From Candidatus Moraniibacteriota bacterium (lineage in GTDB: Bacteria; Patescibacteriota; Minisyncoccia; Moranbacterales; UBA1568), in contig CAVURJ010000002.1 of assembly GCA_963743885.1 (NCBI GenBank), forward strand, positions 369,706-433,705: a stretch of DNA of 64,000 nt, written 5' to 3'. The notes below the pieces were generated by a model. The model searched no databases. It was not told where the DNA came from and saw nothing but the letters and a program-made list of their open reading frames with translations. This document shows, piece after piece, positions 58,487-64,000 of this stretch (its first letter is position 1; the number at the start of each line of letters is the position of its first letter). A program made the translations under genes and the position numbers.

Positions 58487-58552
58487 TCTTTGCATCCAAG
58501 AATCCCAATTCGTATCATTCGAATATTTTTCTGGTCATTTGGGTCGATACGG

Positions 58553-58625
58553 AGATACATAGATGTACCCCTGTGATGGATGAAACTCCTTAGAAACGAT
58601 TATACGCATCCGTTTTCCGAACATT
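58553..58625. repeat. Integrase-proximal direct repeat, copy 1
   Basis: gatacatagatgtaccc ... gaaac..tagaaacgattatacgcatccgttt. Confidence 0.6.
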
Positions 58626-58917
58626 TCCCTCATTTTTCAGATTCAAGACTCCCCTGTGATATTTCACGAAAAACGGGGGGTTTTTATTACCAAACGAAGC
58701 GAGTGAAACGAAAGTAAACTTTCGTTTTCGAGCGAGTGCAGGTAAAATCGGGTTAAATACCCTCCGCCTCTGGCGGAGAGGGATTGAGTCCAGGGCTTGC
58801 CCTGGTGTGAATACCCGTTATATCTGAAATATGAAATATAAAAATGAAAAAATAATGAGGCCAGATACCAGCAAGACCTCTTACATAGAGATATGCCATA
58901 AGAATGAGCGAGGGGAA

Positions 58918-58988
58918 GGATACATAGATGTACCTCCCATGTATTCCGAAACGCTCAGAAACGATCATGCGCATCCGTTTCGGGGATG
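58918..58988. repeat. Integrase-proximal direct repeat, copy 2
   Basis: gatacatagatgtacctc ... gaaacgctcagaaacgatcatgcgcatccgttt. Confidence 0.6.
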
Positions 58989-59217
58989 ATCAGAAGTATA
59001 TTCGAACAATCTTTTGTGCTTCCTTGCCTATTTTCCTTTTTTGCTTTATTACCAAGTATCTATACTATTGTAATGTCTCATAAGTTACATAGGAAGACAT
59101 TGTATGCTTTAAAGAAAACCCGTTACAAACGGGATATTTGATTTTTGTTTTCAAGGTTCTCCTCTACCTCGACAAACCCATTATAGCATACTTTTAAAGT
59201 CCATGCAATAGATTCTG

Positions 59218-60051
59218 TCAATCGAGGAACCTTCGCGCCCGCTCGACCTGCGTTCCTTCGTACAGATTCAGGTAGTGGAATGACGACAACGGGTTGGTAT
59301 GTCCGAGGATGAACTGCACGTCCTTGACCGTTCCCCCGCCATCGAGCACCTGCCAGGCCTTGCTGTGCCTGAAGGAGTGCGCGACGATCCGTTTCTTGAT
59401 CCCGGCCCTCTGGCAATACCCGTGGATTATCCTTGTAGCGCTCCTGGATGTCATCCGCCATCCGTCCCTGGTATTCCCGAATACCGGACCGGTTTCGGTG
59501 CCACAGCGGTCCGCGTAGTCCTTCAGGAACTCGTTCGTGTCCTTCCCCCAGAATATCAGCCGCCGCCGGTCTGTCTTCTTGGTGTCGATGAACGCCTGCC
59601 TATGGAACGTGTCCATGGCCTCAAAATCAAGCGATAGAAGCTCTGAGACGCGCATACCGGTGTCATAGAGCATCCTGACCATCAGATTATCCCTGGCGCC
59701 TTGTAGCGTGTCTACGCGCAGCCATGAGAGCAGCGTGACGTACTCCTCCGGCGTGATCGGCTCATACGGGACCGATCTGGTATGAGGCGGCCGGATGTCC
59801 TTGTAGTCGAAGCGGAGAATCTTGCGGCGCGAGACGAAGGAAGCATAGTCCCGGATAATGGACATGGCGTAGCCTACCGTGCCGCTGGCGTACCGGCTCC
59901 TGATATCCTCAGAGAACCGTAGGACGTCTGAAAGCTCCGCATCAGCCATTCCCTTGCCAGTAATCTCCCGGAAGCGCCGCACCCATATCGCATACGCCTC
60001 GCCGGCGCGCCGGGTATACGATGCCTTCCACCTGATGTATTCGATTTCCAT
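59218..60051 (-). CDS. Tyrosine site-specific recombinase (phage-integrase/XerCD family)
   Basis: C-terminal catalytic region with R ... HSFRHSKA ... LGHTNPLSSFHYLNL (R, K, HxxR, H, Y) and a SAM-like N-terminal domain, 277 aa. Confidence 0.85.
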   Translation of the reverse strand: MEIEYIRWKASYTRRAGEAYAIWVRRFREITGKGMADAELSDVLRFSEDIRSRYASGTVGYAMSIIRDYASFVSRRKILRFDYKDIRPPHTRSVPYEPITPEEYVTLLSWLRVDTLQGARDNLMVRMLYDTGMRVSELLSLDFEAMDTFHRQAFIDTKKTDRRRLIFWGKDTNEFLKDYADRCGTETGPVFGNTRDGWRMTSRSATRIIHGYCQRAGIKKRIVAHSFRHSKAWQVLDGGGTVKDVQFILGHTNPLSSFHYLNLYEGTQVERARRFLD

Positions 60052-60286
60052 AAAACAGGAGCCCCATCTACTTCCTTCAGCTTGGCGGCTTCAGGTTTCG
60101 AATGGGGCTCCTGTTTTTATAATAGCAACGGAATCTATCTTTTGGACGTGATTCCCCTGCTACAAAGGAGTATACCACGAACCAGCCGCCAAGCGTACCG
60201 GGATTCCGGCACCTTTCCGAAGAAAGAAGGTTCTAAGGCATTAGATTGTAACGGCGCACTCTATCCTATTCTGGATATTTTGTCAA

Positions 60287-60321: not shown

Positions 60322-60552
60322 CTACGCGGCGTATGCGGCCCGCTTGATGCGGTACCGGCCGTAGATAGCCTCCACGATACCCATGACACCAAGCACCGTC
60401 GATACGGACTGCAGCGTCCCATCAACCACTCCATCAACCTCTTCCTGCGACGCATAGTCGCTCAAGAAGTACGCGAGCACCATCTTCGCGATGCCGATGT
60501 AGGTCATGCTTCCTTGAAACATAGGATGTTCGTTATGCGGATTATTTCCCAC
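60322..60552 (-). CDS. Small hydrophobic protein (possible lysis-accessory/holin-like)
   Basis: 76 aa with one hydrophobic helix, overlapping the upstream lysin-like gene. Confidence 0.3.
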   Translation of the reverse strand: MGNNPHNEHPMFQGSMTYIGIAKMVLAYFLSDYASQEEVDGVVDGTLQSVSTVLGVMGIVEAIYGRYRIKRAAYAA

Positions 60553-61330
60553 CGAGGAACTTCTGGAGAGCCAGGCGGAAGAGTTCGACCGCGCTCATGT
60601 CCGACTCGAGCACCCTCTTCTCGACCACGACCTCCTTTTCAACTACCTTCTCCACCGGCACCTCCACCGTCACTTCCTTGATGACCGGAGGCTTCGATTT
60701 GCACTGCTCGAGCGCGACCCGGAGTTCCACGTTGCTATCGTAGACCTCGGAGATCTTCTCGCCGAGCTTGTCCATCTCGCTGTCATTGAGCTTATCCCCG
60801 AAATCGAACCCCAGCTTCTTCGCTGCCTTCTTGAGCTTTTCCGTCATAGACGTGTCGTTAATGATTTCCTCTACCACGATCAGATGCCCCCAGCCGCCGT
60901 TCGGACCGGTGCCGGCGTAGACGTACCGGACGATTCCTTCTGCGACGCAGTACACCGGGGCGTCATAGTCAGCGTTCCCACTCCCCTTCCCGTTCTCATC
61001 CAGGCCCGGGTGGTAGCACATCCTCGGCTTGGCGGCCGTCCCATAGTTCGCGAGATCGAGCCAGTCATACCCGAGATGACTATACCCTTCTCCAAGCGCC
61101 TTCGGATATTTCGTCGGATCGACGAACTGCGCGATCGTCTCCTCCTTCGTCCATCCGATATTGTAAAATCCGTAGTTCCCACCCGGGATGGTCTTCGGAT
61201 GGTCTCTATGGCAGTGCGCGGCCCATTGGCCGTTCCCGGTTCCATTGGTCGCTATCTTCTGCCCAAGCTTCACCTTGTCCCCGACCTTTACGAAGACCTG
61301 GTTGACGTGTCCATATCTTGAAAATGGCAT
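60542..61330 (-). CDS. M23-like peptidoglycan hydrolase (putative phage lysin) with permuted LytM motifs
   Basis: VKVGDKVKLGQKIATNGTGNGQWAAHCH (the C-terminal half of an M23 motif) lies at the N-terminus. HPGLDENGKGSGNADYDAPVYCVAEGIVRYVYAGTGPNGGWGHLIVV (the N-terminal half) lies about 100 aa downstream. An RBS aaggtagatagatATG is present. Confidence 0.5.
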   Translation of the reverse strand: MPFSRYGHVNQVFVKVGDKVKLGQKIATNGTGNGQWAAHCHRDHPKTIPGGNYGFYNIGWTKEETIAQFVDPTKYPKALGEGYSHLGYDWLDLANYGTAAKPRMCYHPGLDENGKGSGNADYDAPVYCVAEGIVRYVYAGTGPNGGWGHLIVVEEIINDTSMTEKLKKAAKKLGFDFGDKLNDSEMDKLGEKISEVYDSNVELRVALEQCKSKPPVIKEVTVEVPVEKVVEKEVVVEKRVLESDMSAVELFRLALQKFLGGK

Positions 61331-61332
61331 AT

Positions 61333-61602
61333 CTATCTACCTTCAAACGGATTATGCTGCGCAGGCCAATCTCTCGGCTCGAAGCCTCCTACTGATTCGA
61401 CGGAAAAAACATTGAACAAGAGAAAAGCCAGACCGATAGCGCCAGCGATCCAAAAAGGACTATATTTAACATTCTGTTGAGCTCCTGCATATCGTTTTAT
61501 AGGCTTAGTATTACTGATTAATGCCGCAGAGCGTAGGTGCGGTCTTAGGAGATCAGGATAAGGGGAATGGGTATCCAGATCAAAAAAGAAATGCCGAATC
61601 AT
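61333..61602 (-). CDS. Small single-TM protein immediately upstream of the lysin (holin-like position)
   Basis: 89 aa, TM helix FWIAGAIGLAFLLFNVF, with its stop abutting the lysin start. Confidence 0.35.
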   Translation of the reverse strand: MIRHFFFDLDTHSPYPDLLRPHLRSAALISNTKPIKRYAGAQQNVKYSPFWIAGAIGLAFLLFNVFSVESVGGFEPRDWPAQHNPFEGR

Positions 61603-62280: not shown

Positions 62281-62736
62281 CTACTTCTTGTCGCGCATTT
62301 CCGATACCCGGTCATTGATCAGTGCCACGACTCGGACTGGTGTCCGGAACCCGAATATGGAAAGATTCTCAAATATGGAAAGCGATTCAGACAGGATTAG
62401 GTATATGGTCATCCACTCGAACATCCATCCGAACATAACGCGTTCTGCCTGCGACAGGACGAAGACCGTGAAGAGTGCTGCCCCGTAGAGCGCTATCTTC
62501 TTCGAGAGTGGCTGGCCCATCTTCCAGGAAGCGATGCGCTTCTGTTTGTAGGCGGCCGCTATCGCTACCACGGAATCTGCGATGATGATGATTGAAAGCA
62601 GCCAGAGCACGCGGATCTCATCCACTGAGAGCTGGAGCGCCGGAAATGTCAGCAATAGCGCCACGACACCCTGCCGCGCCTTTTCCATTAAGGTGAGATT
62701 CTTCGCTATTGCTCCGGTTGTGATGGCTGATTGCAT
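62281..62736 (-). CDS. Membrane protein with 3-4 TM helices (holin-like, hypothetical)
   Basis: 151 aa and hydrophobic. Its 5' end abuts the left inverted repeat. Confidence 0.4.
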   Translation of the reverse strand: MQSAITTGAIAKNLTLMEKARQGVVALLLTFPALQLSVDEIRVLWLLSIIIIADSVVAIAAAYKQKRIASWKMGQPLSKKIALYGAALFTVFVLSQAERVMFGWMFEWMTIYLILSESLSIFENLSIFGFRTPVRVVALINDRVSEMRDKK

Positions 62737-62758
62737 AGGCTACAAAGTTATCTTTTTA

Positions 62759-62813
62759 CGTCCTACAACTGGTCTATTCCGACATTCACTGCCGCTAATC
62801 TCATCCAGAGGCC
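62759..62813. repeat. Inverted repeat IR-L (41 bp perfect plus about 14 bp partial) encoding SYNWSIPTFTAANLIQRP
   Basis: cgtcctacaactggtctattccgacattcactgccgctaat is the exact reverse complement of 63580-63620. Confidence 0.85.
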
Positions 62814-63174
62814 TATCTACGATGCGAGAGATGTAACGACCGTGTCAGGGAAAATAATAAAAGTTTCTGGGAAGACCGTTCAAATTATTGGATATGATTT
62901 TGTTCTTGGTGATGGGACTACTGGCTCAAAAGCAAAAGCTGTAACGTACCCGATAACTTTTGCGTCTATTCCTGTGGTTATTGTCACTTACGCCGGGTGG
63001 AAAAATGGTTCAGATTTTAGCTCATTTGCTGATGGTGCCGGAGGAGAGATGGCTTATGTTGGGGCTCCTGAAAATAAGCTAGCAACCGGATTCGGTATCA
63101 GGGTAAAACCTGACACTGCTCTTTCGAGCGCATACCGACTTGGTGTTCATTATGTCGCAACTGGCGTGATGTAA
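62759..63174 (+). CDS. Alternative tail-fibre-like C-terminal cassette Cv2. It is promoter-less, has no start codon, and is oriented opposite to the host gene.
   Basis: It begins inside IR-L with the same peptide as the host gene (SYNWSIPTFTAANLIQRP), then diverges (IYDARDVTTVSGK ...). It ends 3 nt before the stop of the convergent Cv1. Confidence 0.5.
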
Positions 63175-63177
63175 ATA

Positions 63178-64000
63178 TTAAATCTTAGTGAAAAACTCTC
63201 CCTCTGTTTCTTTCAGTCCAGAAGCCGTAAATCCACCGAAAGCGTTTGCCGCTGCGGTAGACAAATTGATACCAATCTTAGCTGTATTATTTGTAGCCCC
63301 GACATTCAATCCTAAAATCCCAGCGTTAACCCCATGCGTCGTATTATCGGTCACTTTAATTGGAAGTCTGAATGTCCCAGCCGCCATTGTTGCTGGTACA
63401 AATGGAAGAGTAAAATTGAATGTTGCGCTATTTGATGTTCCGGAAAATTGAATGTAATAATACACGGAATCATTCACTACTTTATACCCAACAGTTGCCG
63501 TTGGCGTAGGTGCAAATCCAGTGAGTACAGGCGCCCACGATAACCACCTCGTCTCATACACCGGCCGCTGAATCAAATTAGCGGCAGTGAATGTCGGAAT
63601 AGACCAGTTGTAGGACGCTCCGCCCGACAATGTAGCGGCAAAACGTCCGATATTCTCAAACTCATCGCTTACGGCCGTATTGGCAGAATTATCCAAGAGA
63701 ATGCTCTTTTCATTCGTAGTAGTAAGGTAGAAAAAATCATCAAGTCTCGTCCCGTATGGGATTCTTGAAATACCAATCATTACCCGGGAATCAGTCGCAT
63801 TCCATCCAAGATAGACGAAACGGTCTATTTCTTTCGTTGCGAGTTCGGCTCCGCCAGAATTGCAATAGTTCGTTCCGGCGTTCCATGTTCCAGAAAGTGC
63901 AGCGGTGATGCTACGTATAGTGTCGCCAATCCTGATATATACAGGCTCGATTACTGACGGATCATTTCCAGCGAGCGTCTTGATTGCCACGGTAAGATTA
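63178..64000 (-). CDS. Tail-fibre/receptor-binding-like protein. The 5' end runs off the window. It currently carries C-terminal cassette Cv1.
   Basis: The frame is open to the window edge. The constant part ends at IR-R, which encodes SYNWSIPTFTAANLIQRP. Cv1 is rich in G/T/N/S, typical of fibre tips. Confidence 0.5.
   Translation of the reverse strand, partial: NLTVAIKTLAGNDPSVIEPVYIRIGDTIRSITAALSGTWNAGTNYCNSGGAELATKEIDRFVYLGWNATDSRVMIGISRIPYGTRLDDFFYLTTTNEKSILLDNSANTAVSDEFENIGRFAATLSGGASYNWSIPTFTAANLIQRPVYETRWLSWAPVLTGFAPTPTATVGYKVVNDSVYYYIQFSGTSNSATFNFTLPFVPATMAAGTFRLPIKVTDNTTHGVNAGILGLNVGATNNTAKIGINLSTAAANAFGGFTASGLKETEGEFFTKI
63566..63620. repeat. Inverted repeat IR-R (partner of IR-L)
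   Basis: Reverse complement gagcgtcctacaactggtctattccgacattcactgccgctaatttgattcagcggcc. Confidence 0.85.

Follow-up and report, generated by a model that had tools for sequence, protein, structure and literature searches.

At one end of a 64,000-nt stretch of DNA from a Candidatus Moraniibacteriota bacterium (contig CAVURJ010000002.1, positions 369,706 to 433,705; the whole stretch is referred to here as the window), a perfect inverted repeat lies within the coding sequence of a phage tail-fibre gene and encloses two alternative C-terminal ends for that gene. This locus raises the question of whether a prophage can exchange the receptor-binding tip of its fibre by inverting the DNA between the repeats and, if so, which enzyme would carry out the inversion. 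Judging from the sequence, we consider it reasonably probable that the locus is a single-segment invertible receptor-binding-tip switch, resembling the G segment of phage Mu, in the tail-fibre gene of a prophage.

Organization of the repeat-bounded segment

The segment and the gene to which it belongs consist of the following parts:

62759-62799, plus strand: left arm of the inverted repeat (IR-L), 41 nt at the head of the silent cassette, its outer edge 22 nt upstream of the holin start codon
62800-63174, plus strand: Cv2, the silent alternative tip (LIQRP, about 119 aa and a stop codon), with a fold like that of H-type lectins and pyocin fibre tips
63178-63576, minus strand: Cv1, the C-terminal tip now expressed (LIQRP, about 127 aa and a stop codon), of the tip type common in the family
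63577-63617, minus strand: right arm of the inverted repeat (IR-R), 41 nt within the expressed gene, encoding SYNWSIPTFTAAN, which is part of the conserved interdomain junction motif
63618-64000, minus strand: constant part of the tail-fibre or receptor-binding protein (RBP) gene, a conserved central beta-domain; the gene runs past the window end

The repeat, CGTCCTACAACTGGTCTATTCCGACATTCACTGCCGCTAAT, is perfect over 41 nt, and imperfect homology continues inward beyond this core so that 70 nt match at 86% (62759-62828 and 63548-63617). Both arms encode the peptide SYNWSIPTFTAAN, on opposite strands, and LIQRP follows next in both frames. Between them, the arms bracket 859 bp (62759-63617) that hold two tail-to-tail coding cassettes and no further gene. 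The Cv2 frame opens at 62758 on the plus strand and ends in a stop codon at 63172-63174, and the Cv1 frame enters on the minus strand from past 64000 and stops at 63178-63180, leaving 3 nt between the two stop codons; at this centre joint a 6-nt palindrome is all that the two sides have in common. No further copy of the 13-mers of the core exists in the window, which thus has only the two arms and no multiple crossover sites. When 62759-63617 was reversed in silico, the constant part became joined in frame to Cv2, giving 265 visible amino acids followed by a stop codon, and Cv1 moved to the silent position.

A preliminary description of the window had likened this locus to the Mu G segment, and its layout, with a constant part, two alternative C-termini and repeats within coding sequence, is indeed of that form. 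The coordinates and the in silico inversion likewise agree with that description in having the arms encode one peptide on opposite strands, the cassettes lie tail to tail with their stop codons 3 nt apart, and Cv2 swap in frame onto the constant region. The perfect 41-bp repeat and its left arm were also correctly recognized, but the right arm had been placed at 63580-63620, which is 3 nt off. Cv2 had been thought to possess neither a promoter nor a start codon; no promoter-like site was found for it on the plus strand, but an in-frame TTG is present at 62731.

Identity of the fibre gene and its junction motif

Relatives of the fibre gene product are approximately 300-470 aa long, which places roughly 30-200 codons of the gene beyond the window end. 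In metagenomes, more than 1,500 proteins are homologous to the visible 273-aa fragment, the best of them 59-60% identical (P0001-P0004), and a tblastn search of 50,697 phage genomes on deposit gave no match. Searches of Pfam, PHROG and NCBIfam returned no match for the constant part or for Cv1. In three related loci (L001, L161 and L009), an SU10-type adaptor and a tail protein of 518-652 aa are followed by the fibre gene, and in L009 the fibre gene lies directly before the holin, whose start is 27 nt after the fibre stop codon. The window itself shows only the downstream side of this module (holin and lysin); by synteny, structural genes should lie on the upstream side, past 64000.

The fold of the fibre gene product matched, among phage proteins, the tail needle of Pseudomonas phage Pa223, gp15 of Listeria phage PSA and the RBP heads of lactococcal phages TP901-1 and p2 and, among other viral proteins, reovirus sigma1/sigmaC and adenovirus fibre knobs. 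A Foldseek search of predicted viral structures returned proteins with the names minor tail protein, tip attachment protein J, T7 tail fibre and lambda side tail fibre. Because of the tail-module synteny and these fold matches, we conclude that the gene encodes the receptor-binding tail fibre of an uncultured, podovirus-like phage group, as its initial annotation as tail-fibre-like had anticipated.

In an alignment of the family, the N-terminus and the C-terminal domain were variable and the central domain was conserved. The central and C-terminal domains are linked by the most conserved motif of the family, Y-x-W-S-x-P-T-F-T-A-x-N-L-I-Q-R-P-I-Y-E-T-R, and it is on this interdomain motif that the inverted repeat is positioned. 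In an AlphaFold2 model of the fragment, the domain formed by residues 1-126 had a predicted local distance difference test score (pLDDT) of about 90, and the motif (residues 127-147; window 63558-63620) was the sole low-confidence stretch of the monomer, with a pLDDT below 50. The model suggests that the junction motif is probably an inter-subunit element, such as a trimer neck, that monomer prediction is unable to place.

Two tips of different fold

The distribution of the two tips was examined in 158 related loci, comprising 8 loci from species-representative genomes, 66 viral and 80 metagenomic loci, plus look-ups. The Cv1 tip had tblastn similarity in 78 of the 158 and was 55% identical to the tip of one of the closest homologues (P0001). 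No similarity between Cv2 and Cv1 could be detected (blastp E value 0.9), and the only locus of the 158 with a match to Cv2 was L055, where the product of a 367-aa fibre gene actually ends in a Cv2-type tip (37% identical over 139 aa). Word-indexed searches with Cv2 found nothing, or only a single protein (P0122), and a viral scan with an alignment of Cv2 tips recovered the L055 contig only. Exhaustive HMMER searches found approximately 45 proteins that carry the Cv2 body as a C-terminal module, including a 385-aa member of the fibre family (P0121) whose C-terminus is 50% identical to Cv2. In P0122 (L161, 2304-2930), a protein of 208 aa, the N-terminal anchor is joined directly to a Cv2-type lectin tip with no central domain, and the gene stands in the usual place, preceded by the SU10-type adaptor and a tail protein of 536 aa.

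Some of the proteins with a Cv2 module matched the Pfam families H_lectin and Gp53-like_C, one of them (P0126) above the H_lectin cutoff; Cv2 itself had only a sub-threshold hit to H_lectin (E value 0.007). The Cv2 model was confident (pLDDT 88.7), and its fold matches included the C-terminal domains of tailspikes. The Cv2 frame is open over 138 codons, a length reached by only 0.04% of shuffles (P approximately 0.0004), and it keeps the invariant residues of its family. Compared by structure with phage fibre tips, Cv1 and Cv2 both resemble phage or viral receptor-binding domains, in line with their earlier description as alternative fibre ends. We conclude that Cv1 and Cv2 differ in fold class but are both intact receptor-binding tips, and their occurrence in relatives shows both types in use as true C-termini on the same constant domain.

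Neither of the two relatives with a Cv2-type tip on a full fibre gene offered a second example of the arrangement: the P0121 contig ends 56 nt after the gene, and downstream of the L055 gene lie a small gene and then structural genes, with no cassette. A protein collection that contains the window's neighbouring proteins held neither the fibre protein nor any product containing Cv2.

The GC content at third codon positions (GC3) was 0.34-0.44 for the constant part, Cv1 and Cv2, 0.68-0.77 for the holin, lysin and recombinase genes downstream, and 0.58-0.70 for host genes. Because of their common low GC3, the constant part and the two tips look like one co-evolved unit. The step in composition at 62759 / 62736 suggests a mosaic prophage in which the fibre module, or the whole structural module, is of different origin.

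Homogenization of the two arms

There are 0 differences between the arms across the 13 codons of the repeat, with identity at every synonymous site, whereas 5 of 15 nt differ in the next five codons, which encode the identical residues LIQRP. In relatives, the corresponding DNA is far from constant: among 87 distinct junction DNAs, the pairwise median was 11 differences in 39 nt, and of 748 pairs of relatives with at least 5 differences in the LIQRP codons, none had fewer than 4 differences upstream, compared with 0 for the arms in the window. Since the LIQRP codons differ and the relatives diverge upstream, the identity of the arms stems neither from protein constraint nor from chance. Both arms also carry the variant Y-N-W-S-I, which is absent from the 87 other junction DNAs; relatives with a Cv2-type tip have the usual Y-T-W-S-V. 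The 0 versus 5 differences, taken with this private variant, indicate that the arms were homogenized at the DNA level within this genome. One arm has been copied onto the other here, after the tips had diverged.

Prophage genes downstream of the fibre

Three further genes bear on the origin of the segment and on the enzyme that might invert it:

62281-62736, minus strand: holin (Pfam Phage_holin_4_1, 4.5e-10; PHROG 199, holin), the next gene downstream of the fibre, which would be reached by transcription through the antisense silent cassette
60542-61330, minus strand: M23-peptidase lysin (Pfam Peptidase_M23, 2.3e-8; PHROG endolysin/peptidase families), 43% identical to the L009 lysin
59218-60051, minus strand: tyrosine recombinase of 277 aa, armless and XerC/D-like (Pfam Phage_integrase, 5e-27, and a SAM-like N-domain), probably the prophage integrase and a candidate invertase

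A zinc-ribbon open reading frame (ORF) and small ORFs, also on the minus strand, lie between the holin and the lysin. Downstream of the recombinase gene there is a terminator-like hairpin, followed by host genes (a hydrolase, an M23 peptidase and gltX). This order of holin, lysin, recombinase and then host genes confirms the prophage context originally proposed for the segment. The recombinase consists of a SAM-like core-binding domain (residues 10-67) and a catalytic domain (residues 99-263) only, with no arm-binding domain; its NCBIfam hits were XerA/XerD/XerC-like, all below cutoffs, and the R...HxxR...H...Y motifs are readable in the sequence. It is the sole recombinase in the 64 kb and has no paralogue there.

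Proposed inversion of the segment and the evidence against it

In the mechanism that we propose, the constant part of a minus-strand gene ends in the conserved linker, within which the 41-bp repeat sits, and two promoterless tips of different fold lie tail to tail between the arms, with Cv1 joined to the constant part at present and Cv2 silent and antisense. Recombination between the arms would flip the segment and join Cv2 in frame to the constant part, and the virions of a population of lysogens would then carry either of two receptor specificities. We infer that inversion is still ongoing and alters host range.

Several results weigh against a switch of this kind, or against its most obvious enzyme. 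When the 158 related loci were translated in six frames and searched with a hidden Markov model of the junction motif, none of them had an inverted second junction copy; the window stands alone, and the arrangement is not recurrent in the family. The exact repeat core had no match in IMG/VR. Internal inverted arms of at least 5 nt with a 2-13 nt spacer are absent from the 41-mer, which has no dyad symmetry. No dedicated invertase was found adjacent to the segment or in the 64 kb by Pfam searches and by tblastn with a Hin query, the best E value for a serine invertase being 0.65 in the 64 kb and 1.2 in 160 loci. With regard to the tyrosine recombinase, a prophage in a Candidatus Moraniibacteriota metagenome-assembled genome (L009) has the fibre, holin, M23 lysin, recombinase and host genes in the same order as the window, and its recombinase is 37% identical to that of the window (E value 3e-54), but L009 has no cassette and no notable inverted repeats. 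In a local alignment with 58487-59217, which adjoins the recombinase gene, the repeat region scored at the shuffle mean, and none of the repeated motifs near that gene is present in the 41-nt repeat.

The enzyme and the alternative explanations

The downstream neighbours of the segment are the holin, the zinc-ribbon protein, small ORFs, the M23 lysin and the tyrosine recombinase, and the earlier statement that no serine invertase is in view is correct for the 64 kb. Because no invertase gene adjoins the segment, catalysis must be in trans. The 277-aa recombinase had been put forward as the driver, and a switch driven specifically by this enzyme (59218-60051), either a Rin/Rci-like invertase or an integrase doubling as one, is one alternative, although we regard it as doubtful. 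It is the only recombinase available in the window, its catalytic motifs are present, and its armless XerD-like organization is that of Rin and Tsr15. The missing dyad is no objection, since known tyrosine shufflon sites are asymmetric (11-bp rix), and the sharp edges of the 41-bp identity are more in keeping with a site under selection than with a conversion tract that diffuses. However, the gene lies 2.7 kb off, beyond the lysis genes at the prophage-host boundary and with the terminator-like hairpin after it; its homologue occupies the same place in L009, where there is neither cassette nor notable inverted repeat, and the repeat shows no likeness to the recombinase-side DNA, whose motifs do not recur at the repeat. 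The proposal that it drives the switch is therefore not borne out. Being a standing component at the phage-host boundary that is also present in cassette-less L009, the recombinase is most simply an integrase, and it is probably the integrase of this lineage. The accompanying opinion that an RBP switch based on a tyrosine recombinase would be unusual also has to be given up, since the Rin shufflon provided a precedent in 2018 (PMC6109161).

When the possible agents are set side by side, the prophage's own tyrosine recombinase comes first, tentatively; a recombinase encoded outside the window and homologous recombination on the 41-bp repeat rank equally after it, and the case in which no inversion takes place at present ranks last. 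It is also unlikely that one armless XerD-like recombinase combines the roles of integrase and tip invertase and, in the second role, uses a 41-bp asymmetric site in the RBP linker. If this were true, the locus would represent a minimal one-enzyme module for lysogeny plus host range, in phages whose closest relative by synteny is a prophage from the Candidate Phyla Radiation (CPR; Moraniibacteriota).

The main rival to a working switch is that the locus is a frozen relic of one past inversion or illegitimate event, in which Cv2 is no longer exchanged and the 41-nt identity is the recent joint left by that event. This explanation, which we find unlikely, would account for an arrangement that is unique among the 158 related loci, for the lack of an adjacent invertase and for a repeat without recognizable features of a recombinase site. 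It also agrees with the observation that a second specificity is found in this family more often as a separate tandem gene. Two loci, L005 (323-3193) and L131 (56-2030), have two complete fibre paralogues in tandem and in direct orientation, one of them long with an N-terminal anchor and the other short, about 290-300 aa, without the anchor. This tandem dual-RBP arrangement is an alternative to the inverted cassette; modules are freely reshuffled in this family, and among the resulting solutions the inverted cassette is a rare one. Against a relic, Cv2 is undecayed, with its open frame, confident fold and invariant family residues. The tips diverged anciently, yet the arms are identical and share a private variant, which requires exchange after the divergence, and a process able to homogenize inverted repeats can also cross over and invert the DNA between them.

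That Cv2 is instead a separate small gene, starting from the TTG at 62731 and encoding a 147-aa lectin-like protein rather than an exchangeable tip, is very improbable. The in-frame TTG exists, and stand-alone proteins of 121-145 aa that consist of the lectin-like module alone are known (for example P0125, P0134 and P0139), but no promoter-like site lies upstream on the plus strand and the putative start falls within the holin gene of the opposite strand. Moreover, the ORF opens with the junction motif, whose DNA matches that of the fibre gene at 100% and for which a lone lectin would have no use, and the exact 147-aa product is absent from the protein collection. An assembly artefact joining two strain variants of the fibre gene, which might be suspected since the 500,284-bp contig is probably metagenome-assembled and 41 is near common k-mer sizes, is scarcely credible and was rejected on topology, because the holin upstream region beside IR-L with Cv2 facing away from the holin is impossible to obtain from two co-linear variants, the joint at the centre offers only the palindrome noted above, and an inverted repeat can blur the orientation of the inner segment for an assembler but cannot create the architecture.

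Further observations on the prophage end

A number of additional features were noted near the lysis and recombinase genes. The lysin ORF aligns only to the C-terminal half of the Pfam M23 profile (positions 47-82, residues 4-39), and directly upstream of it is an 89-aa ORF without homologues (61333-61602); the lysin may have been split or have lost N-terminal sequence. Within the inverted-repeat segment, a weak sigma-70-like site (9/12) at 62883-62854 on the minus strand faces the holin, although such sites are not above chance in this region. If this site were real, inversion would uncouple it from the holin.

The gap between the hydrolase and recombinase genes contains direct repeats 365 nt apart, GGATACATAGATGTACC (58554-58569 and 58919-58934) and AGAAACGATYATRCGCATCCGTTT (58592-58615 and 58957-58980). 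Both blocks exceed chance by a wide margin and have no further copies in the window; they are candidate binding sites for the recombinase or a regulator at the prophage end. The same gap has two strong hairpins, AAACGAAAGT-AA-ACTTTCGTTT (approximately 58706-58729) and CCTCCGCC-TCT-GGCGGAGG (58762-58778), with a DNA fold z of -3.9. Two short, independent Logan contigs (run ERR12035942) that encode the window's exact proteins both end at approximately 58,710-58,730, between the hydrolase and the recombinase. Because both contigs end there, a prophage junction at this position would fit, and the site is possibly an attachment (att) core or the prophage junction itself.

Directly upstream of the recombinase start codon lies a perfect 16-nt inverted repeat, AAAACAGGAGCCCCAT / ATGGGGCTCCTGTTTT, with a 34-nt loop (60052-60117), which is a possible operator or attenuator of recombinase expression, and a promoter-like site is found further upstream of the gene at 60286-60258. 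The 64-kb window contained no tRNA genes and no Rfam family at gathering score, several of its large ORFs (535-773 aa) had no NCBIfam match, and its housekeeping genes were of generic type.

Significance

If the segment flips, as the preferred explanation of an invertible tip switch would have it, the locus would represent a host-range switch in a large and wholly uncultured phage family, with more than 1,500 metagenome homologues and none among the approximately 50,700 phage genomes that have been deposited. Ultra-small CPR bacteria, about whose phages hardly anything is known, harbour some members of this family. The locus pinpoints the linker where this RBP family exchanges its tips, which is useful for the annotation and engineering of fibres, and it provides a compact test case for inversion catalysis without an invertase encoded alongside. 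It introduces no new principle, since invertible fibre tips (Mu, P1, p15B) and their tyrosine-recombinase versions (Rin) are already established; what is new is the phage family.

Comparison with known systems

The Mu G/Gin system and its relatives (P1 C/Cin, e14 P/Pin and p15B Min) share with the present locus the repeats within fibre coding sequence, the constant N-terminal part and the two alternative C-termini. The outcome of inversion in those systems is an alternative host range, which here is inferred. The Mu repeat, at 34 bp, is of the same order of length as the 41 bp found here. Gin-type systems have an adjoining serine invertase gene, dyad-symmetric 26-bp crossover sites, an enhancer and, within the segment, a second gene, U/U'. 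In contrast, no serine recombinase was found in the 64 kb of the window with a Hin query, the repeat is without dyad symmetry, the segment holds two tips only, and the protein family is unrelated.

In the R64 shufflon, the tyrosine recombinase Rci swaps the C-terminal tips of the PilV adhesin at asymmetric sites in coding sequence. The swap of a C-terminal tip within coding sequence would be common to both, but the R64 shufflon belongs to a plasmid conjugative-pilus system and has multiple segments, 19-bp sfx repeats and an adjacent rci gene. The tandem dual-RBP genes of L005 and L131 involve the same protein family as the window and likewise provide two receptor specificities from one locus; they differ in being two complete genes in direct orientation that can be co-expressed, with no repeat-bounded cassette.

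Two systems from Bifidobacterium prophages are also relevant. The Rin shufflon was described as the first phage-encoded tyrosine invertase (Mavrich et al. 2018, PMC6109161); its armless XerD-like enzyme acts on 3-5 cassettes with asymmetric 11-bp rix sites, rin flanks the cassettes, and the prophages have a separate canonical integrase (PMC6109161). Similarities to the present locus are the prophage RBP, whose N-terminus is constant and whose exchangeable C-termini are dissimilar and about 100 aa long, the armless tyrosine recombinase and the asymmetric sites. Here, however, there is one cassette pair with 41-bp repeats; the recombinase gene stands 2.7 kb off, at the end of the prophage, and is also found in a relative that has no cassette. 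A second inversion system, in tRNA-Met-integrated Bifidobacterium prophages, consists of a segment of approximately 500 bp that includes a small gene and the 3' end of its neighbour (PMC6109161). It uses an 8-bp site, its genes are of unknown function, and inversion was seen by comparing two prophages (PMC6109161). Like the segment described here, it is a single segment with dissimilar gene segments and no flanking recombinase; the present locus differs in its 41-bp repeat, in its identifiable RBP and in that one orientation is available. By this comparison, the window's fibre locus resembles the second bifidoprophage system in missing a neighbouring invertase, and in form it is closest to Mu G.

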